This document shows, piece by piece, positions 1 to 9,824 of a stretch of DNA of 64,000 nt. Source of the stretch: Rhabdothermincola salaria (GTDB taxonomy: Bacteria; Actinomycetota; Acidimicrobiia; Acidimicrobiales; Acidimicrobilacustridaceae). Made by a program: the position numbers and the translations under genes. How positions within the stretch are numbered: the stretch's first letter is position 1; each line of letters opens with the position of its first letter. The stretch lies in the NCBI RefSeq assembly GCF_021246445.1, contig NZ_JAJQXW010000001.1, forward strand, positions 922,068 through 986,067, written 5' to 3'. Under the pieces are notes generated by a model that saw nothing but the letters and a program-made list of their open reading frames with translations, made no database searches and was not told where the DNA came from.

Positions 1-1
1 C

Positions 2-604
2 GTCGACGACTGCCTCGCCGGGGAGCCCGAGTTCGGCGTGGTGCTCATCGAACGGGGGAGCGAGGTCGGCGGCGGTGACCTGCGCCGTGACGTCGGCACC
101 GTCGCCCGCATCGTGGAGGCCGTGCGCTTCGACGACGGCCGCTGGGGTCTGGGCTGCGTGGGCGTGCGCCGGGTCCGGGTGGATCACTGGTTGCCCGACG
201 ACCCCTATCCCCGTGCGGAGATCGCCGACTGGGAGGACGAGCAGGTCGGGCCGGCAGCCACCGACCTCCTCGTCGAGGTGACCGCCCGCCTCCGTCAGGT
301 GCTGGCGGCCACCGCGGAGCTCGGCCTGCCCGCGGCGCCCGCCACCCTCGAGCTGGCCGACGACCCGGTCCTGGCCAGCTACCAGGCCAGCGCCCTGGCC
401 CCCTTCGGCCCCGCCGACCACCACGACCTCCTCGCCGAACCGGGCCCCGAGGCCCGGCTGGCCCACCTCCGGCACCTGTTGGTCGAGGAGACCGAGTACC
501 TGGAGCGTCGACTGGCCATGGCCTCCGAGGACCTCGGCCCCCCGGACGACGACGACCGCCCTCGGCCCGAACCCGGCGACGACCCGCCGGACGACGACAC
601 CTGA
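2..604 (+). CDS. LON peptidase substrate-binding (LON_N) domain protein, 5'-partial
   Basis: Frame open from the window edge; FGVVLIERGSEVGGG..VGTVARI..G.RRVRVDHWLPDDPYP motifs typical of standalone LON_N proteins. Confidence 0.85.
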   Translation, partial: VDDCLAGEPEFGVVLIERGSEVGGGDLRRDVGTVARIVEAVRFDDGRWGLGCVGVRRVRVDHWLPDDPYPRAEIADWEDEQVGPAATDLLVEVTARLRQVLAATAELGLPAAPATLELADDPVLASYQASALAPFGPADHHDLLAEPGPEARLAHLRHLLVEETEYLERRLAMASEDLGPPDDDDRPRPEPGDDPPDDDT

Positions 605-703
605 TCGCTCGTCGCTGGAGGACGTTGCGCCGGCATGGAGATCGGCTTTCGGCGGTGTGGGTAGGGTTGGCCGTTGACCGTCCCCGTCGACGAGGTGAGC
701 TGC

Positions 704-1048
704 GTGGCCAACAAGACATCGGTGCCCGACACCCTGCAAGAGCTCAAGGACCTGCTCGTCTCGTACGCCAAGCAGGAGACGATCGATCCTCTGCGCAACG
801 TGGGCCGGTTCCTCGGCTTCGGCCTCGGCGGCATCATGTTGCTGTCGCTCGGCACGGTCCTGCTGGCCCTGGCGGCCCTGCGGGCGCTGCAGACCCAGAC
901 CGGCGACGTGTTCGCCGGCTTCTGGTCCTGGGCGCCGTACCTCATCGTGATGGTGGGCCTGCTCGCCGTCACCGGCGTCGTGGCCAGCCGCATCACCAAG
1001 GGCGGGCTCGGCACGCCCGTCGAACCCAGCTCAGGGAAGGCACGATGA
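704..1048 (+). CDS. Actinobacterial holin-X-like two-TM membrane protein
   Basis: LKDLLVSYAKQETIDPL followed by two hydrophobic helices; GAGG before GTG 704 (alternative start 674). Confidence 0.65.
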   Translation: MANKTSVPDTLQELKDLLVSYAKQETIDPLRNVGRFLGFGLGGIMLLSLGTVLLALAALRALQTQTGDVFAGFWSWAPYLIVMVGLLAVTGVVASRITKGGLGTPVEPSSGKAR

Positions 1049-1266
1049 CCACGACCTCCACGCCGGGCGCGCCCATCACCCGCGACGACATCGAGGCCAA
1101 GTTCCGCGACATCCAGGGCGAGGTCGAGACCATGGAGACCGAGGCGCGCGACTACCTCGGCATGGCCATCGCCGCGGTCGCCGTCACCGTGGTCGTCGTC
1201 GCGTTCGTGCTCGGCAACCGGCGGGGCAAGAAGCGGCGCACGGTCGTCGAGATCCGCAGGGTCTGA
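1045..1266 (+). CDS. Small membrane protein (73 aa), possibly DUF3618/ElaB-like
   Basis: ATGA overlap with upstream stop; helical N-terminus (DDIEAKFRDIQGEVE), one TM helix, basic tail. Confidence 0.7.
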   Translation: MTTTSTPGAPITRDDIEAKFRDIQGEVETMETEARDYLGMAIAAVAVTVVVVAFVLGNRRGKKRRTVVEIRRV

Positions 1267-1586
1267 TGCCGCTGCTCGACACCGCCCGACGGCTGGGGCT
1301 CACGCGTGGGGTGTTCGGCGACAGCCGCCCCTGGCTGGTCATCGGTGGCCTGGCCTGGGGCCTCCGCGCTCTGCAGTGGGCGCGCCGGCCCTCACCCGAG
1401 ACGGTGATGCGCGAGGTGCTCGAACCGGGCGAGACCATCGTCATCCGCCACGACGGTGCCCCGCCGACCCGCCGGCAGCGCCGCAAGGCCGCCAAGGCGG
1501 TCAAGAAGGCGTCCCGACGGGCGGAGCGCAGCGACGCCGAGGCGACGGCGGCGACCCTCGACGCCGTCACCGGCCACGGGGGCTGA
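1266..1586 (+). CDS. Hypothetical membrane-associated protein
   Basis: TGATG coupling to upstream gene; one hydrophobic segment and a basic C-terminal region. Confidence 0.6.
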
Positions 1587-1653
1587 CTCGCTCGTCTGCC
1601 CACCCGAGGGGGGCGGAGTTCGCTGTCGGCCCCCGGCCTGCGATCATGGGGAC

Positions 1654-1854
1654 GTGAAGGTGCTGTTGCGCAACCCCCGGCGGGAGATCGAGGTCCCGGG
1701 CCCGATCACCGTGATCAACCTGTTGGACCGCCTCGACCTCAACCGTGAGTCCGTGCTCGTCATCCGCGCCGGAGAGCTCGTGGCGGGCGACGCCACGTTG
1801 GCCGACGACGAGTCGGTCGAGGTCCGTCCCGTGATCTCGGGAGGCTTCCGATGA
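1654..1854 (+). CDS. ThiS/MoaD-family ubiquitin-like sulfur carrier (TtuB-like) ending GG-FR
   Basis: 66 aa beta-grasp pattern [47 protein letters not shown]-coupled to the TtuA-like gene. Confidence 0.85.
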
Positions 1855-2822
1855 AGTGCGTGACCTGTCGGGAACCGGCGATCATCGACATCCGCCGCCA
1901 CAACGCCAACTTCTGCGCCGAGCACTTCCTCGAGCAGTGCCGTCGTCAGGTCGTCAAGGCCATCGACGAGTTCGAGATGATCGCGCCGGGGGAGCGGGCA
2001 CTGGTCGCGGTGTCGGGCGGCAAGGACTCCCTCGCCGTCTGGGACCTGCTCACCGAGCTGGGCTACGACGCCGACGGCCTCTACCTGGGTCTCGGCATCG
2101 GCGAGTACAGCGACGTGTCGGGGCGCCATGCCCGCGACTTCGCCGCCGCCCGGGGGCTCAAGCTGCTCGAGGTCGACCTCCCCGAGCGCTTCGGCTACGA
2201 CATCCCCACCGGGGCCCGCGCCGCCCGCCGGGCGCCGTGCTCGGCGTGCGGGCTCTCCAAGCGCCACCTCTTCGACGCCGTGGCCGTCGAGGAGGGCTAC
2301 GACGTGCTCGTCACCGGCCACAACCTCGACGACGAGGCCGCCGTGCTGTTCGGCAACACCCTGCACTGGCACACCGAGTACCTCGGCCGCCAGCTCCCCG
2401 TCCTGGCCGAACGCGACGGCTTCCCCCGCAAGGTCAAGCCGCTGGTTCGCCTCACCGAGCGCGAGATGGCCGCCTACTGCGTCGTGCGGGGCATCGACTA
2501 CCTCGTCGACGAGTGCCCCATGGCCGCCGGCAACCGTCACCTCACCTACAAGGAAGCCTTGAACGACATCGAGAAGGCCTCACCCGGGGCCAAGCACTCC
2601 TTCTACTTCGGGTTCCTCGCGCGGGCCGCCGAACGCTTCGCCGACGAGGCCGAGACCGATCGTGAAGGTCTGCGCGCCTGTCCCACCTGCGGGGCTCCGA
2701 CCACCGCCGAGACGTGTGCGTTCTGCCGCCTGGTCGAACGGGCCGGTGGGGCCCGGCCCGACCCCTCGACGGCCACCGCGGTGCCCGTCGAGCTGGGACC
2801 GACGCGGGCCGGCGCCCGGTGA
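1851..2822 (+). CDS. ttuA: TtuA/Ncs6-type tRNA 2-thiolation enzyme (PP-loop, Fe-S, Zn fingers)
   Basis: N-terminal CxxC..CxxH Zn finger, SGGKDS PP-loop, CSAC, GHNLDD, ECP, C-terminal CPTC..CAFC. Confidence 0.8.
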
Positions 2823-3592
2823 GCCGCCTGTTCGGCGCCGGAGACCGCGTCCTGCTCATCGATCACAAGAAGCGCCGCTACCTCGTCACGCTCAAGGCCG
2901 GAGGGGAGTTCCACTCCCACGCCGGCTTCGTGCCGCACGACGCGGTGATCGGGGTCGAGGAGGGATCGACGGTCCGCTCCACCCGCCACCTGCCCTACCT
3001 GGCGATCCGCCCCACGCTGTCGGACTTCGTGCTCAAGATGCCCCGTGGCGCCCAGGTCATCTATCCCAAGGACCTCGGACCGATCCTCATGTTGGCCGAC
3101 CTCTTCCCGGGGGCCCGCGTGCTGGAGTCCGGCATCGGGTCCGGTGCCCTGTCCATGGCCATGCTCCGGGCCGGCGCCGACATCGTCGGCTACGAGCTCC
3201 GGGAGGACTTCGCCGCCCGGGCCCAGGAGAACGTCGCCTCCTTCCTGGGCGACGAGGCCATGAGCCGGTACCGGGTGGAGCTGCGCGACTGCTACGACGG
3301 CATCGACGAGACCGACCTCGACCGGGTCGTCCTCGACCTGCCCGAACCCTGGCGCATCGTCCCCCACGCCGAGAAGGCGCTTCACTCCGGCGGCATCTTG
3401 TTGGCCTACACGCCGAGCATCGTGCAGGTGATGCAGCTCCGCGAGGCGCTCGAGGCCAGCGCCTTCGAGATGGCCGAGACCGTCGAGGTGCTCAACCGCA
3501 CCTGGCACGTCGAAGGCCAGGCGGTGCGCCCGGATCACCGGATGGTGGCCCACACGGGCTTCCTCACCCACGCCCGCCTCCTGCGCGGCTGA
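2819..3592 (+). CDS. trmI: tRNA (adenine58-N1)-methyltransferase
   Basis: MPRGAQVIYPKD, VLESGIGSGAL, LDLPEPW, VRPDHRMVAHTGFL; GTGA overlap with ttuA stop. Confidence 0.93.
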   Translation: MSRLFGAGDRVLLIDHKKRRYLVTLKAGGEFHSHAGFVPHDAVIGVEEGSTVRSTRHLPYLAIRPTLSDFVLKMPRGAQVIYPKDLGPILMLADLFPGARVLESGIGSGALSMAMLRAGADIVGYELREDFAARAQENVASFLGDEAMSRYRVELRDCYDGIDETDLDRVVLDLPEPWRIVPHAEKALHSGGILLAYTPSIVQVMQLREALEASAFEMAETVEVLNRTWHVEGQAVRPDHRMVAHTGFLTHARLLRG

Positions 3593-3620
3593 GCCCCTTC
3601 GTCGCGATCCGAGCCGAGCC

Positions 3621-4793
3621 GTGAACCTCCTCGACGTGGCCCTGGTGGTCGTCGGCGTGGCCGTCGCGGTCGGCGGCTACCGGCTGGGCTTCATCACCCG
3701 GGTCGTGTCGTGGATCGGACTGGCGGTGGGGCTGATCCTCGCCGTCCGGCTCGCCCCGGCCCTGGTCTCCAGGATCGACCCCTCTCATGCCGGCATCGTG
3801 CTCGTGCTCACCGTGGGGCTGTTGTTGGTCGGGGCCTCCCTGGGCCAGGCGCTGGGCTTCCTCGTCGGGGGTCGGCTGCGTCCCCGACGACCCGACGGCG
3901 TCGTCGGCCGTCTCGACGGCGCCATGGGCGCCATCGCCGGCGTCGTGGGCCTGGTCGCGCTGGTCTGGCTGATGCTTCCGGTGCTGGCGGTGTCGCCGCC
4001 GTGGATCTCCCGGCCGGTCACCACCTCGTGGGTCGCCCGTGCGGTCGACCAGAACCTCCCCGAGCCGCCCGACGCCATGGCCGCCTTGCGGAGCCTCGTG
4101 GGCGAGGACTCCTTCCCGGAGGTCTTCGAGGCGCTGCGGCCCACTCCCGATCTCGGCCCGCCGCCGGAGGCGACCGGACTCGACCAGGCCACCAGCGAGA
4201 CCGTCGCCCGCTCGGTGTTGATGATCGAGGGCGTGGCCTGCGCCCGAGTCCAGGACGGCTCCGGTTGGGTGGCGGCACCCGAGACGGTGGTCACCAACGC
4301 CCACGTCGTGGCCGGACAGGCTCGCACCGAGGTCATCCGCGACGACGGTCGCCGCCTCGATGCACGTGTGATCGCCTTCGACCCCGACCGCGACCTCGCG
4401 GTGCTCGATGTCGACGGCCTCGACCGACCGGCGCTGACGGTCGTGGAGGCCGCCGCCGCGGCCGGGACCATCGGGGGCGTCTTCGGCCACCCCGGCGGCG
4501 AGCCGCTGCGCATCGCCCCGTTCGAGGTGGCCCGCCCCCTCGAGGCGACCGGGCGCGACATCTACGACGCCACCACCACCCGCCGCCAGGTCCTCGAGCT
4601 CTCCGCCGCCCTACGGCCCGGGGACTCCGGCTCGGCGCTCGTCGACCCCACCGGCCGGGTGGTCGGGGTGGCCTTCGCCATCGCTCGGGACCAGCCCGAC
4701 GTCGCCTACGCCCTCGCCACCCCGGAGCTGGAACCGGTGCTCGCCGACGCGGCCGTGGGCGCCACCGTCACCACCGGGGCCTGCCTGGGGTGA
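3621..4793 (+). CDS. marP: MarP-family membrane serine protease (CvpA TM domain + trypsin-like domain)
   Basis: Four N-terminal TM helices; catalytic motifs TNAHVV, DLAVL, GDSGS. Confidence 0.85.
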   Translation: MNLLDVALVVVGVAVAVGGYRLGFITRVVSWIGLAVGLILAVRLAPALVSRIDPSHAGIVLVLTVGLLLVGASLGQALGFLVGGRLRPRRPDGVVGRLDGAMGAIAGVVGLVALVWLMLPVLAVSPPWISRPVTTSWVARAVDQNLPEPPDAMAALRSLVGEDSFPEVFEALRPTPDLGPPPEATGLDQATSETVARSVLMIEGVACARVQDGSGWVAAPETVVTNAHVVAGQARTEVIRDDGRRLDARVIAFDPDRDLAVLDVDGLDRPALTVVEAAAAAGTIGGVFGHPGGEPLRIAPFEVARPLEATGRDIYDATTTRRQVLELSAALRPGDSGSALVDPTGRVVGVAFAIARDQPDVAYALATPELEPVLADAAVGATVTTGACLG

Positions 4794-4919
4794 CCGGTGG
4801 CCCGAGCGCCACGGCGACGGCGACGGCGACGGGACCGGGCGCGACACGAGGGAGGCAGTGCCTCCCTCGTGGTCAGTACCGATGCAGCTGGTGTCGGGCG
4901 GGCGCCGGACGCCCGCCGC

Positions 4920-5156
4920 TCACTCGGCTTCGATGAAGATGCACTCGCCGGGGCACTCCTCGGCGGACTCGATCACGGCGTCGAGCTGTCCGTCGGGGAT
5001 GTTGGCCATGCCGGCCGCGCCGCCCGGGTCGGAGAACACCTTGTCGCCCTCCCTGACGTAGGCGAGGCCGTCGTCGAGCAGGGTGAACACGTCAGGGGCG
5101 ATCTCTTCGCAGAGGCCGTCGCCGGTGCAGAGATCCTGGTCGATCCAGACCTTCAT
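4920..5156 (-). CDS. Single-cluster ferredoxin (CxxDxxC type)
   Basis: 78 aa, CTGDGLCEEIAP..ECPGECI; GAGG upstream; divergent from arc. Confidence 0.93.
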   Translation of the reverse strand: MKVWIDQDLCTGDGLCEEIAPDVFTLLDDGLAYVREGDKVFSDPGGAAGMANIPDGQLDAVIESAEECPGECIFIEAE

Positions 5157-5437
5157 TCGCCATGTACCTCTTCGTGAGGGAGTCGGGGTGGGGTGGCGTC
5201 CGCCGCAGAGGCGGGGGCCGTTCGACGGCCACTCTAGTGCACCTCCGGGGGATTTCCCCGGCATTGTCGGGAGAAATTCTGAGGGGCGAGCGCAGCTTAC
5301 GGCCCGGTGAGCATTCCCGGCGGCCATGCGCCCGTGCAAGTCCGTGTCACCGCCGTGTGAACCGTGCCGCCGCTCCGCCGGTCTGGGCAGGGACCGGGAT
5401 AGGGTCGACGACCACGCCGTGACCGAGGAGGTGGGCC

Positions 5438-7198
5438 GTGCCCGCACCGGACGACGACACCACCGAGAACGACGAACTGGCCGCCGTGCAGGACCAGATC
5501 GCCACGCTCGAGGAGGAGGTCGCCTCCCTGCGCCAACGCCTCCAGGACGCCCCCAAGCGCGTCCGCACCCTCGAGGAGCGCCTCCTCGAGACCAAGGGCC
5601 AGCTGGCCCAGGCCGTCTCGCAGAACGAGAAGCTGACCTACACGTTGCGAGAGGCACGTGAGCACATCGCCGCCCTGCGAGACGAGGTCGACAAGCTCAC
5701 CCAGCCACCCGCGGCCTACGGCACCTTCCTCGGCCGCAACGACGACGGCACCGTCGACGTCTTCTCCGGCGGACGCAAGGTGCGCGTCGCGGTGCACCCC
5801 GACCTCGACCACGTCGACCTGGCCCGTGGCTCGGAGGTCGTGCTCAACGACTCCCTCAACGTCGTACTGGCCCGGGCTCACGAGCGCACCGGCGAGGTGG
5901 TGACCTTCAAGGAGCTGCTCGACGACGGTCGTCGGGCCATGATCCTCGGGCGCGCCGACGAGGAGCAGGTCGTCGAGATCTGCGAGGACCTCCTCGCCGG
6001 ACCCCGGCTGCGAGCCGGCGATTCGGTGCTGCTCGACCCCCGCGCCGCCCTCCTGCTCGAGAAGCTGCCCCGCCCCGAGGTCGAGGAGCTCGTCCTCGAG
6101 GAGGTCCCCGACGTCTCCTACGCCGACGTGGGCGGCCTCGACGGCCAGATCGACCAGATCATGGATGCCGTCGAGCTGCCCTTCCTGCACCAGGACCTGT
6201 TCGCCGAGCACAAGCTCCCGGCCCCCAAGGGCATCTTGTTGTACGGCCCGCCGGGATGCGGCAAGACGCTCATCGCCAAGGCCGTCGCCAACTCCCTCGC
6301 CAAGAAGGTGGCCGAGGTCTCCGGCGACCAGGAGGCCCGCAGCTACTTCCTCAACATCAAGGGCCCCGAGCTGCTCAACAAGTACGTGGGCGAGACGGAG
6401 CGCCAGATCCGCCTCGTGTTCGAGCGAGCTCGCGAGAAGAGCGAGGAGGGCTGGCCCGTCATCGTCTTCTTCGACGAGATGGACTCCCTGTTCCGCACCC
6501 GCGGCACCGGCATCAGCTCGGACATGGAGTCCACGATCGTGCCGCAGCTCCTCGCCGAGATCGACGGCGTCGAAACCCTCAAGAACGTCATCGTGATCGG
6601 CGCCTCCAACCGCGAGGACCTCATCGATCCGGCCATCCTGCGCCCCGGACGCCTCGACGTGAAGATCAAGATCGAGCGTCCCGACGAGGGCGCGGCCGCC
6701 CAGATCTTCGCCCGGTACCTCACCGCCGACCTGCCCCTCGACGTCGACGAGGTCGACCAGCTCGGCGGGGGCGATCCCGAGAAGGCGGTACGGCTCATGA
6801 TCGAGCAGACCGTCGCCGAGATGTACCGCCACGACGAGGCCAACCAGTTCCTCGAGGTCACCTACCAGAACGGCGACAAGGAGGTCATGTACTTCAAGGA
6901 CTTCTCCTCGGGCGCCATGATCGAGAACATCGTGCGCCGGGCCAAGAAGCTGGCGATCAAGCGCTTCCTCGCCGACGGCGTGCGCGGCATCCGGGTGGAC
7001 GACCTCATCGAGTCGATCCACCAGGAGTACAAGGAGCACGAGGACCTGCCCAACACGACCAACCCCGACGACTGGGCCAAGATCTCGGGCAAGAAGGGGG
7101 AGCGCATCGTCTACGTCCGCACCCTGGTCAAGAAGGCCGACACCGACCCCCAGGGCGGTCGATCCATCGAGCGGGTCGCGACCGGCCAGTACCTCTGA
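5438..7198 (+). CDS. arc: Proteasome AAA+ ATPase ARC/Mpa
   Basis: N-terminal coiled coil, OB domains, Walker A GPPGCGKT, Walker B FFDEMD, C-terminal GQYL. Confidence 0.97.
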
Positions 7199-7205
7199 GG
7201 CGACC

Positions 7206-8717
7206 ATGGCCATCGCCAAGATCTGCGGGATCGAGACCGAGTACGGCATCGTCATGCGCGGCACCGACGACCCCAACCCCATCGCCGCCTCCTCGATCCT
7301 CATCACGTCGTACCTCAACGACATCGCCGAGGCGCCGGGGACGCCCGGTCCCGCACCCAAGGTCGACTGGGACTTCGAGGACGAACAGCCCGGCACCGAC
7401 GCGCGGGGCTGGTCGCCGCTGGAGGCCATGGCCCCGGAGGTCGAGACCAACCTGGTGAACGCCGTGCTCACCAACGGCGCCCGCTACTACGTCGACCACG
7501 CCCACCCGGAGTGCTCGACCCCGGAGTGCGCCGACGCCCGCTCGGTCGTGGTCTTCGACCGGGCCGCCGAACGCATCCTGCAACGGTCGATGGCGGCGGC
7601 CAACCGGTCCCTGCCCCCGGGGCAGGAGATCGTCATCTACAAGAACAACTCCGACGGCAAGGGCAACTCCTACGGCTGCCACGAGAACTACCTGATGGAC
7701 CGCGAGGTGCCCTTCGGTCGGATCGTGAGCCAGGTCACCCCTCACTTCGTCACCCGCCAGATCTTCTGCGGGGCGGGCAAGGTGGGCTGCGAGGCGGGCC
7801 TCGGACCCGACGAGGTGCCGTTCCAGATCAGTCAACGAGCCGACTTCTTCGAAGAGGAGGTCGGTCTCGAGACCACGCTCAAGCGCCCCATCGTCAACAC
7901 CCGCGACGAGCCCCACGCCGACGCGTCGAAGTACCGGCGCCTCCACGTCATCATCGGTGACGCCAACCTCTCCGAGGTGGCCACGTTCTTGAAGGTCGGC
8001 ACCACCGCCCTCGTGCTGGCCATGATCGAGGACGACGTCCTACCCCGGCAGTTCGTCTTCGCCACCCCCGTCCCGTCCCTGCGCGCGGTCAGCTACGACC
8101 TGGGCCTCTCCACGCCGCTGGCCCTCGCCGACGGCACCACCGTGACCGCCCTCGAGGTGCAGTGGGAGCTCTACGCCCGGGCCCGCAAGTACGCCGACGA
8201 CGGCGGGCTCGAGGCCGTGGGGGCCGACGTGGGGGCCGAGGTCCTGCGGCGCTGGGAGGCCGTGCTCACCGGGCTCGAGTCCGACCCCATGGCCCTGGCC
8301 GGCCAGCTCGACTGGGTGGCCAAGTACCGCCTCGTCGACGCCTATCGCCAGCGCCACGAGCTGGCCTGGGGCGACGCCCGGCTGGCGGCCCTCGACCTGC
8401 AGTACCACGACCTGCGCCCGGACCGCTCGCTCGCCGCCCGCGTCGGGCTCGAGCGCCTGACCACCGATCAGGAGGTCGACGCGGCGATGACCGAGCCACC
8501 CACCGACACCCGGGCGTACTTCCGCGGGAAGTGCCTGCAGAAGTACGCCGACGACGTGGTCGCGGCCAACTGGGACTCCATGGTGTTCGACATCGGCAGC
8601 GAGCCGCTGCGTCGGGTCCCGATGATGGAACCCTCCCGCGGAACCGAGGCCCACGTGGGTAGCGTGATCCGAGACAGCGACACCTCCGCCGAGCTCCTCG
8701 AGCGGTTGGGTTCCTGA
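7206..8717 (+). CDS. dop: Pup deamidase/depupylase Dop
   Basis: [40 protein letters not shown]; directly upstream of pup. Confidence 0.96.
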   Translation: MAIAKICGIETEYGIVMRGTDDPNPIAASSILITSYLNDIAEAPGTPGPAPKVDWDFEDEQPGTDARGWSPLEAMAPEVETNLVNAVLTNGARYYVDHAHPECSTPECADARSVVVFDRAAERILQRSMAAANRSLPPGQEIVIYKNNSDGKGNSYGCHENYLMDREVPFGRIVSQVTPHFVTRQIFCGAGKVGCEAGLGPDEVPFQISQRADFFEEEVGLETTLKRPIVNTRDEPHADASKYRRLHVIIGDANLSEVATFLKVGTTALVLAMIEDDVLPRQFVFATPVPSLRAVSYDLGLSTPLALADGTTVTALEVQWELYARARKYADDGGLEAVGADVGAEVLRRWEAVLTGLESDPMALAGQLDWVAKYRLVDAYRQRHELAWGDARLAALDLQYHDLRPDRSLAARVGLERLTTDQEVDAAMTEPPTDTRAYFRGKCLQKYADDVVAANWDSMVFDIGSEPLRRVPMMEPSRGTEAHVGSVIRDSDTSAELLERLGS

Positions 8718-8745
8718 CCCCTCTCGAACGAAGGACGACAACGCG

Positions 8746-8940
8746 ATGGCCGAGCGAGAGCAGATCCGCAAGACCACCACCGAGAAGGCCGACGTCGAGG
8801 TCGACGAGGCCCCTGTCAGCACCGAGAAGGGCGAGAAGCTCAAGGCCGAGCTCGACGACCTGCTCGACGAGATCGACGAGGTCCTCGAGACCAACGCCGA
8901 GGACTTCGTGCGCAGCTTCGTCCAGAAGGGCGGGCAGTAG
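8746..8940 (+). CDS. pup: Prokaryotic ubiquitin-like protein Pup (GGQ type)
   Basis: DDLLDEIDEVLETNAEDFVRSFVQKGGQ. Confidence 0.97.
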   Translation: MAEREQIRKTTTEKADVEVDEAPVSTEKGEKLKAELDDLLDEIDEVLETNAEDFVRSFVQKGGQ

Positions 8941-8978
8941 CCCGCCGGACACCCGGCCCGGCACTAGCCTCGGCGCTC

Positions 8979-9824
8979 GTGACCATGCCGTTCTTCTCAC
9001 CCCCCGACGACCCCGGACCCGACTTCGCCGGGCTGTTGCGCCGGTCAGGCCTGGCTCCGGAGGCGCCCACCTCCGACGTCGCCGCCCGGATGCCCATCAC
9101 CCACGCCACCACCGTGGTCGCCATCCGCTACGCCGACGGGGTGGTGATGGCCGGTGACCGACGGGCCACGTCCGGCAACCTCATCTCGCACCGAGCCATC
9201 GAGAAGGTCTTCCCCGCCGACCGCCACAGCGGGGTGGCCATCGCCGGTGCCGCCGGACCGGCGATGGAGATGGTCAAGCTCTTCCAGCTGCAGCTCGAGC
9301 ACTACGAGAAGGTCGAGGGCAGCGCCCTCAGCCTCGAGGGCAAGGCCAACCAGCTCGGCCAGATGGTGCGGGGCAACCTCGGTGCGGCCCTGCAGGGTCT
9401 GGCCGTGGTGCCGCTCTTCGCCGGCTACGACGTGCTGCGGGGGACCGGCCGGCTCTTCCAGTACGACGTCACCGGCGGTCGCTACGAGGAGTCCAACTTC
9501 GCGTCCACCGGTTCGGGCAGCCTCCACGCCGGCACGGTGGTCAAGATCGGCTTCCGGGAGGGCCTCGAGCGGGCCCAGGCGCTCGACCTGGCCGTCACCG
9601 CGCTGTTCCAGGCCGCGGACGACGATTCGGCCACCGGTGGCCCCGACCTGGTGCGCGGCATCTATCCCACCGTCGCCACCATCACCGCCGCCGGGTTCGA
9701 GAAGGTGACCGAGGCCGAGATCGCCGAGCGCTTCGGTGACCTGATCGAGGTCCTCGCCGCCCGCGAGCCCGCCATCCCGGGCCGTCTCCCCGAGACGGGC
9801 ACCGACACAGGGGACGACGTCTGA
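8979..9824 (+). CDS. prcB: 20S proteasome beta subunit
   Basis: Propeptide then HA/TTVVA; AGDRRAT; DDSATGGPD. Confidence 0.96.
   Translation: MTMPFFSPPDDPGPDFAGLLRRSGLAPEAPTSDVAARMPITHATTVVAIRYADGVVMAGDRRATSGNLISHRAIEKVFPADRHSGVAIAGAAGPAMEMVKLFQLQLEHYEKVEGSALSLEGKANQLGQMVRGNLGAALQGLAVVPLFAGYDVLRGTGRLFQYDVTGGRYEESNFASTGSGSLHAGTVVKIGFREGLERAQALDLAVTALFQAADDDSATGGPDLVRGIYPTVATITAAGFEKVTEAEIAERFGDLIEVLAAREPAIPGRLPETGTDTGDDV

Follow-up and report, generated by a model that had tools for sequence, protein, structure and literature searches.

A predicted sulfur carrier-TtuA-TrmI operon for tRNA T-loop thiolation, upstream of the Pup-proteasome genes, in Rhabdothermincola salaria and other Actinomycetota

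To characterize a gene cluster next to the Pup-proteasome genes of Rhabdothermincola salaria, we focused on a stretch of 64,000 nucleotides (nt) of its genome (assembly GCF_021246445.1, contig NZ_JAJQXW010000001.1, positions 922,068 to 986,067; hereafter, the window). Three overlapping genes at 1654..3592 of the window encode a small ubiquitin-like (Ubl) sulfur carrier, a TtuA-like enzyme and TrmI. This ttuB-ttuA-trmI trio probably is an operon for modification of the tRNA T-loop ('elbow'), a reading to which we assign a probability of about 0.7. A pathway regarded as a heat adaptation has most likely been kept here, as judged from the genome sequences, in an actinobacterial lineage of ordinary temperatures. 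It is not a new kind of system, and its notable points apply clade-wide: the hosts are probably non-thermophilic, the carrier is blocked or fused, and a step that forms 5-methyluridine at position 54 (m5U54) was not found. The features of the trio are as follows.

1654..1854, + strand: ttuB-like carrier gene, GTG 1654 to TGA 1852-1854, 66 amino acids (aa), end ...RPVISGGFR
1840..1844, + strand: GGAGG in the Gly-Gly codons (GGAGGC) of the carrier gene, 6 nt before the ttuA ATG
1851..2822, + strand: ttuA-like gene, ATG 1851 to TGA 2820-2822, 323 aa
2819..3592, + strand: trmI, GTG 2819 to TGA 3590-3592, 257 aa

An earlier note on this DNA, made from the letters and open reading frames (ORFs), had described the three genes as joined by ATGA and GTGA overlaps. 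Reading the window sequence bore this out: the carrier stop overlaps the ttuA ATG at 1851-1854 (ATGA), and the ttuA stop overlaps the trmI GTG at 2819-2822 (GTGA). The start codons of ttuA and trmI coincide with the first aligned residue of their homologues, and the trio ends 1.8 kb 5' of arc-dop-pup-prcB. The families named in that note (sulfur carrier, TtuA-like enzyme and TrmI) were confirmed by Pfam profiles, as detailed below for each protein.

The product of 1851..2822 is predicted to be a TtuA-type [4Fe-4S] PP-loop tRNA 2-thiolase with two zinc fingers. It matched the Pfam families TtuA_LIM_N (38 bits, cut-off 27) and ATP_bind_3 (34.6 bits, cut-off 27), and Thermus thermophilus TtuA (PDB 5b4e) at 309 bits over residues 1-296. 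The solved TtuA PH0300 was matched at 241 bits, versus 91 bits for M. maripaludis NcsA, and the NCBIfam scores were 265 bits for TtuA, 120 for NcsA and 73.5 for TtcA. A grouping with TtcA, which the earlier note had set beforehand as the outcome that would count against it, thus fails, since the enzyme scored highest to TtuA and lowest to TtcA. The PP-loop motif SGGKDS (S55-S60) did not vary among 14 homologues aligned from the whole phylum, nor did Lys137 and the three cysteines C130, C133 and C222. The latter align column for column with 5b4e, and the [4Fe-4S] cluster ligands of T. thermophilus TtuA are Cys130, Cys133 and Cys222 (PMC7025502). The zinc fingers have the ligands C3, C6, C22 and H25 at the N-terminus and C277, C280, C289 and C292 at the C-terminus; seven of these eight were invariant in the same homologues, the exception being the fourth N-terminal ligand. 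Only one TtuA-family gene is present in this genome. The parts of the system all belong to known families, and automatic annotation already calls close relatives of the enzyme TtuA, several of them being named 'tRNA-5-methyluridine54 2-sulfurtransferase' by JGI.

The product of 2819..3592 is a predicted homologue of TrmI, the methyltransferase for 1-methyladenosine at tRNA position 58 (m1A58), with matches to the Pfam families GCD14 (101.5 bits) and TrmI-like_N (70.2 bits). Of the solved structures, Rv2118c (PDB 1i9g) matches best at 215 bits, and T. thermophilus TrmI (2pwy) was matched at 156 bits. Thiolation of U54 in Thermus is favoured by m1A58, which acts as a positive determinant (PMC6313347, PMC7912444), and 2-thiouridine at position 54 (s2U54) pairs with m1A58 (PMC6313347, PMC7912444, PMC3980101). 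A link between U54 and m1A58 is favoured here by the presence of TrmI directly 3' of ttuA in 109 of 110 loci, and by its detection in only 25 of 80 sampled genomes without TtuA. The T-loop sequence GTTCRANYC, which holds both U54 and A58, was detected in 47 of the 53 tRNA genes of this genome.

MnmA is the bacterial U34 thiolase. It is present in this genome (231 bits) and in 78/79 TtuA-positive genomes; these 79, also used for JAMM and TrmA below, were picked from the 126 published TtuA-positives for a completeness of ~94% or more. U34 thiolation therefore already has an enzyme, which favours position 54 over position 34, and with MnmA present and only one TtuA-family gene in the genome the TtuA-like enzyme would add to U34 thiolation rather than replace it. 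TrmFO was found neither in this genome nor in any of 35 TtuA-positives picked to cover every family. The TrmA/RumA family (PF05958) was likewise not found in this genome; its matches among the TtuA-positives, in 11/79, were all weak and partial (26-50 bits). Because neither TrmFO nor TrmA was found, the predicted product is s2U54 and not 5-methyl-2-thiouridine (m5s2U54). Sulfolobus acidocaldarius also has TtuA and TtuB without TrmA (PMC7912444).

The carrier is predicted to be a beta-grasp sulfur carrier of the ThiS/TtuB/SAMP2 family. It passed the Pfam ThiS profile (25.9 bits, cut-off 22.5) and nearly passed that of SAMP2 (24.2 bits). Among solved structures T. thermophilus TtuB (5ztb_E, E 5.3e-06) is the closest, with an end-to-end alignment that reaches ...ISGG, followed by SAMP2-type proteins of P. 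furiosus. The protein consists of a 64-aa core ending ...PVISGG and a 2-residue tail, FR, which blocks the carboxylate of the Gly-Gly, and must accordingly be trimmed. The earlier note had overlooked this tail. The core was 64 aa up to the GG in all 84 distinct homologues, with S62, G63 and G64 invariant in 32 aligned carrier sequences. Only 6 of 68 separate carriers end right at the Gly-Gly, and the others have unconserved tails of 1 to >12 residues.

Of 107 loci, 39 lack the stop codon of the carrier gene, so that the carrier is fused in frame to TtuA, with a linker of 1-13 residues leading to the first TtuA zinc finger; 33 of the 39 fusions have no start codon at the aligned first TtuA position. 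RefSeq holds such fusions as single proteins from Nitriliruptor alkaliphilus (WP_211262493.1, 402 aa) and Egibacter rhizosphaerae (WP_165492289.1, 387 aa), the former with the Pfam domains ThiS (9-64), TtuA_LIM_N (70-95) and PP-loop (125-297). On the TtuA tree, fused and separate states changed at least seven times. The GGAGG at 1840-1844 probably acts as the Shine-Dalgarno sequence for ttuA. Of the separate genes, 48/68 use GGA or GGG as their first Gly codon, which yields GGAGG or GGGGG, versus 11/39 of the fused genes, and the commonest spacing to the ttuA start is 5 nt (22/68 separate genes), descriptive figures that come from related rows. With the Gly-Gly codons doubling as the putative ribosome-binding site of ttuA, a short tail on the carrier may be the price of coupling.

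Identical fused TtuB-TtuA sequences were observed in L035 (genome G235, family f47) and L036 (G153, contig C150, family f23), and G153 holds a second, different copy (L196); one of these two bins probably contains a foreign contig. The ttuA frame, fused or adjacent to the carrier, was interrupted, by one TGA in the match or a split into two pieces, in L178 (G112), L195 (G053), L205 (G177) and L211 (G138), possibly as pseudogenes, frameshifts or assembly errors.

We searched the genome, which is 97.8% complete, for partners of the pathway. The earlier note had found no E1/TtuC gene in the window and had proposed to look through the genome for MoeB/E1, JAMM and TrmFO; one E1 and one JAMM were found, both outside the window, and TrmFO, as stated, was not. 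The only strong ThiF-family match (C1:1279086-1279793) lies ~293 kb past the window end and passed the NCBIfam 'MoeB' model NF006444 (560 bits, cut-off 449). It has an N-terminal rhodanese domain with a CAGGVRS motif, which would bring TtuC-like and TtuD-like functions together in one chain. The single Prok-JAB (JAMM) protein (C1:1134253-1134651) had the haloarchaeal desampylase as its best NCBIfam match (60.5 bits, cut-off 130), and its gene adjoins a pyridoxal phosphate-dependent CysM-like gene with no carrier gene between them. In 11 of 12 other carrier genomes examined JAMM adjoins cysM, a CysO-like gene or the E1, and the full order JAMM-E1-CysO-like-(CysM) was present in 6 of those 11; a JAMM-E1-CysO-CysM operon type was listed by Iyer 2006 (table rows 4c and 4d; PMC1779556).

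Two further ThiS-family carriers are encoded in this genome, one CysO-like and ending in GG, the other MoaD-like with 8 residues after the GG. The E1 and JAMM are probably shared with the CysO and MoaD pathways. The CysO-like gene (G000:C2:765539-765793) sits on another contig than JAMM, next to a chaperonin gene. The MoaD-like carrier (G000:C4:174153-174374, - strand; locus L008 1474-1734) ends VSGG followed by CGPTAGAR, so a second carrier of this genome would need trimming. JAMM was found in 79/79 TtuA-positive versus 43/80 TtuA-negative genomes (the first 80 of 266 in numbering order), a distribution that fits a need for a protease and is confounded by the CysO pathway and by relatedness.

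A mechanism consistent with these assignments would begin with the methylation of A58 to m1A58 by TrmI. The PP-loop of the TtuA-like enzyme would then adenylate C2 of U54, and sulfur, passed via the free iron of the [4Fe-4S] cluster, would replace the oxygen. The sulfur source would be the thiocarboxylated C-terminal glycine of the TtuB-like carrier, whose GG-FR precursor would be cut after Gly64, most likely by the single JAMM/Prok-JAB enzyme of the genome. The trimmed carrier would be adenylated and sulfurated by the single E1, the rhodanese-MoeB fusion, and the product would be s2U54 paired with m1A58, not m5s2U54. The sequences show directly the order and overlaps of the genes, their families, the conserved catalytic residues, the phyletic distribution, and the carrier tails and fusions. 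From these we infer which tRNA position is modified, how sulfur is delivered, which protease acts and what the modification is for, possibly stiffening of the T-loop in a non-thermophile.

To place the trio within the phylum, we profiled evenly drawn genomes of Actinomycetota. TtuA was matched (E <= 1e-20) in 135/401, including 9 unpublished genomes that were all matches (126/392 without them); about 17 of the matches are distant paralogues (28-40% identity) without the trio context. A word-based search returned 8000 relatives, the nearest of which (98-72% identity) came from metagenomes and from metagenome-assembled genomes of Acidimicrobiales. Gene order was read in 110 close-type loci, 30 from this profile itself and 80 fetched in addition, all of them in published genomes. 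Directly 5' of ttuA the carrier was matched by tblastn in 108/110, the other two being cut by contig ends, and TrmI lies 3' of ttuA on the same strand in 109/110; as exceptions, L031 shows no TrmI over the next 1.4 kb, and L127 has it at a distance of 6.5 kb. In the 80 related named loci, which are all from Acidimicrobiia, the carrier was found in 80/80 and TrmI in 77/80, the other three contigs ending just after ttuA. The trio arrangement is far beyond chance.

Among loci whose sequence extends 8 kb or more downstream, arc follows ttuA within that distance in 45/47 loci of Acidimicrobiia and 9/10 loci of other classes. In a quick IQ-TREE phylogeny of TtuA (LG+G4, 112 rows, with an outgroup of five distant paralogues), 24 changes suffice to explain the 24 taxonomic-family labels, against a minimum of 23, which argues for vertical inheritance. 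The order ttuB-ttuA-trmI-...-arc-dop-pup-prcB is an old feature of the phylum, and the copy in R. salaria is an ordinary member. Since the trmI-arc synteny is old and phylum-wide, the position beside the Pup-proteasome genes needs no functional explanation. The earlier note, which did not know a ttuBA pair in this operon from model species, had presented the trio as a feature of this lineage. Among Acidimicrobiia, however, the trio is standard, several other classes have it too, and the adjacency to arc belongs to a phylum-wide synteny of the whole block. The T-loop thiolation pathway proposed there agrees with the enzyme, carrier and TrmI homology and with the gene context; it is not peculiar to this lineage, and the s2T54 product that had been assumed gives way to s2U54, no m5U54 methyltransferase (TrmFO or TrmA) having been found.

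A divergent TtuA-like gene (~40% identity) without an adjoining carrier or TrmI was observed in L135 (G240, contig C13, a 1.3-Mb genome), where an E1-like gene ends ~0.9 kb upstream; G240 also has a second, more distant paralogue.

Several points weigh against reading the trio as a T-loop thiolation operon, and some of them suit other explanations. The modified position is deduced from homology and gene linkage alone. The NCBIfam TtuA equivalog NF049949 (tRNAsynTtuAPyrococ) has a cut-off of 450 bits, which the TtuA-like protein misses at 265; by name this is a Pyrococcus-type model, and its cut-off was reached in 1/14 named control genomes. The placement among TtuA, NcsA and TtcA is a comparison of scores, not a tree with named references. 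Moreover, s2U54 and m5s2U54 have been reported from thermophiles only (PMC5372745, PMC6313347), and the growth temperature of the host was estimated near 38 C. The enzyme could instead thiolate another tRNA position, U34 like NcsA/Ncs6 or C32 like TtcA, the trmI linkage being mere co-regulation. TtuA, NcsA and TtcA do form one superfamily with the same chemistry, matches to NcsA (120 bits) and TtcA (73.5 bits) were obtained, the equivalog cut-off was missed, and position-54 thiolation is unknown in mesophiles (PMC6313347). We nevertheless regard a different position as unlikely, because solved TtuAs score three times NcsA, both zinc fingers are present and are lacking in TtcA group I (PMC3980101), MnmA occurs in 78/79 operon-carrying genomes, and TrmI accompanies the enzyme in 109/110 loci.

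The carrier raises a different doubt about thiolation of the T-loop through a thiocarboxylated Ubl. A free C-terminal Gly-Gly is missing from the carrier as encoded, which ends GG-FR, and the operon that makes this blocked form holds no protease gene. In vitro, TtuA of T. thermophilus accepts free sulfide (PMC11323500), which makes it less than certain that the enzyme depends on the carrier. The Ubl might then be an accessory domain of TtuA, permanently attached or blocked by its tail, that helps in folding, tRNA binding or regulation, with the enzyme using sulfide or persulfide directly; the rarity of separate carriers ending in Gly-Gly (6/68) and the in-frame fusions (39/107, 33 of the 39 without a start codon at the junction) are in keeping with this. 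JAMM, adjoining cysM, may be present only for cysteine synthesis, and the counts in TtuA-positive and -negative genomes compare related, non-independent genomes. However, SGG is invariant at residues 62-64 in fused and separate carriers alike, a conservation difficult to account for unless the chain is cut and its glycine set free, and the residues past the GG are unconserved in length and sequence, like a discarded propeptide or linker. JAMM was present in all 79 carrier genomes, and there is precedent for cleavage: MoaX (fused MoaD-MoaE) of M. tuberculosis requires it (PMC4326299), and DRJAMM cuts MoaD-MoaE in D. radiodurans (PMC8832034). An accessory role seems to us about as improbable as modification of another position.

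Somewhat less probable still is that the carrier serves mainly as a protein tag, in a second ubiquitin-like conjugation system that works with or feeds the Pup-proteasome machinery. TtuB of Thermus is conjugated to TtuA at Lys137, Lys226 and Lys229, and a JAMM mutant has ~50% less thiouridine (PMC3980101). Lys137 is invariant in the proteins studied here, whereas the other two sites are not kept (A226 and R229). The genome has an E1 and a JAMM, and the block stands beside arc-dop-pup-prcB in 45/47 and 9/10 loci, an adjacency that is accounted for by the trmI-arc synteny. This synteny presumably persists in actinobacteria without ttuBA, as in Rv2118c-mpa of M. tuberculosis. Apart from the conserved Lys137 and the JAMM, nothing was found in favour of the second tagging system that the earlier note had suggested as possible. 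No E2- or E3-like gene was found in the block (ORF list and Pfam), and conjugation would add to sulfur transfer, not replace it. Conjugation is possible as a side activity of the carrier and is not needed to explain the locus.

The setting of this pathway would differ from that described for it. The modification s2T54 has been called 'only present in thermophiles' (PMC5372745), 'not from mesophiles' (PMC6313347) and, in 2026, 'typically found in thermophilic bacteria' (PMC13602947). The IVYWREL fraction of R. salaria, 0.3985 over 2008 long ORFs with high G+C at third codon positions, corresponds to ~38 C, a rough estimate that high G+C may inflate. The formula used for this conversion is reportedly that of Zeldovich et al. 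2007. The tRNA G+C content (0.652) was set aside as a thermometer, being ambiguous in a high-G+C genome. The named relatives of the locus fall in Microthrixaceae, Ilumatobacteraceae and Iamiaceae, and these relatives, together with N. alkaliphilus and E. rhizosphaerae, we take to be non-thermophiles.

A broader proposal, which we consider evenly balanced, is that a large, mostly non-thermophilic part of Actinomycetota makes s2U54 paired with m1A58 without the m5U54 step. Like ubiquitin, the carrier would be synthesized as a precursor, or else be fused to the N-terminus of its client enzyme, and would be cut after the Gly-Gly; fused and separate states would have switched at least seven times, apparently because the codons for Gly-Gly also serve ttuA as a ribosome-binding site. 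If true, this would overturn the view of T-loop 2-thiolation as specific to thermophiles. The complete, vertically inherited machinery occurs in about a third of the sampled actinobacterial genomes, including cultured non-extremophile species, which makes the claim directly testable by one tRNA mass-spectrometry experiment. The tight coupling of ttuA and trmI is independent genomic support for the dependency of s2U54 on m1A58, which to date has been described in Thermus alone. Carriers with tails or fusions offer a simple bacterial model for the processing of ubiquitin-like precursors, and for the possible sharing of a single E1 and a single JAMM among several carriers.

Around the trio, the ORF list and family profiles gave the following genes in the window.

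38-604, + strand: Lon N-terminal (substrate-binding) domain protein, upstream of the carrier
674-1048, + strand: holin-X-like membrane protein, upstream of the carrier
1266-1586, + strand: 106-aa protein without a family, upstream of the carrier
3621..4793, + strand: MarP-family membrane serine protease (NCBIfam MarP_fam_protase 302 bits, cut-off 250; Pfam Colicin_V and Trypsin_2)
4920-5177, - strand: small single-cluster ferredoxin (Fer4_15, 65 bits), between the MarP-family gene and arc
5438-7198, + strand: arc (NCBIfam pup_AAA 761 bits)
7206-8717, + strand: dop
8746-8940, + strand: pup
8979-9824, + strand: prcB

A sequence scan of positions 1-9000, which the 72% G+C of the genome makes uninformative, detected no promoter-like sites; three terminator-like sites were found there versus 1.9 expected, none of them at an operon boundary. 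The MarP-family gene starts 28 nt 3' of trmI and is perhaps cotranscribed with the trio, although the model does not need it. It was matched by tblastn in 47/80 Acidimicrobiia loci, some of the loci ending too early to show the gene. A MarP-like protease was considered as the carrier-processing enzyme and set aside, given its CvpA-type membrane domain and its match in only 47/80 loci of the class; the protease domain of M. tuberculosis MarP presumably faces the cell exterior. Outside this class, 3/12 loci instead have a weak MarP-like match (27-33% identity) ~1.1 kb 5' of the carrier. The ferredoxin was matched at 70-93% identity in 60/80 Acidimicrobiia loci, and the upstream genes also travel with the block in this class (Lon N-terminal protein 65/80, holin-X-like protein 77/80, the 106-aa protein in fewer).

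In comparison with known systems, the trio is closest to the s2T54 system of Thermus, which comprises TtuA, TtuB, TtuC (E1), TtuD (rhodanese), IscS/SufS and TrmI (PDB 5b4e, 5gha, 5ztb). Shared are the architecture and catalytic residues of the enzyme, the carrier family, and the E1 and rhodanese functions, and the functional link of TrmI and TtuA in Thermus (PMC6313347) has its counterpart here in a gene overlap. Unlike in Thermus, the carrier is made as GG-FR, where the solved TtuB chain ends GG; E1 and rhodanese share a single polypeptide; the genes ttuB, ttuA and trmI overlap within one operon; and TrmFO and TrmA were not found, so that the product is probably s2U54, in a host that is not a predicted thermophile by a rough estimate. 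No description of the operon or of the TtuB-TtuA fusion was found in the openly searchable literature, subscription journals lying outside this scope, and neither is mentioned in the available parts of Iyer 2006 and of Makarova & Koonin 2010. The latter describes archaeal ThiS-family genes beside PP-loop ATPase genes (PMC2948915). The trio resembles in this the archaeal SAMP2/UblA proteins with NcsA and the TtuA paralogues of Haloferax, Thermococcus and Pyrococcus, where a ThiS-family Ubl stands beside a PP-loop tRNA thiolase; it differs from the archaeal SAMP2 systems in its bacterial phylum, in an enzyme much closer to TtuA than to NcsA, and in having trmI in the operon. As in MoaX of M. tuberculosis (PMC4326299) and MoaD-MoaE of D. 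radiodurans (PMC8832034), the Gly-Gly is buried by a tail or partner and must be exposed, but the fusion partner here is a tRNA thiolase and not MoaE. Finally, with JAMM beside cysM and one E1 that probably serves several carriers, the genome is like the CysO-Mec-CysM-MoeZR system (PMC3227635).

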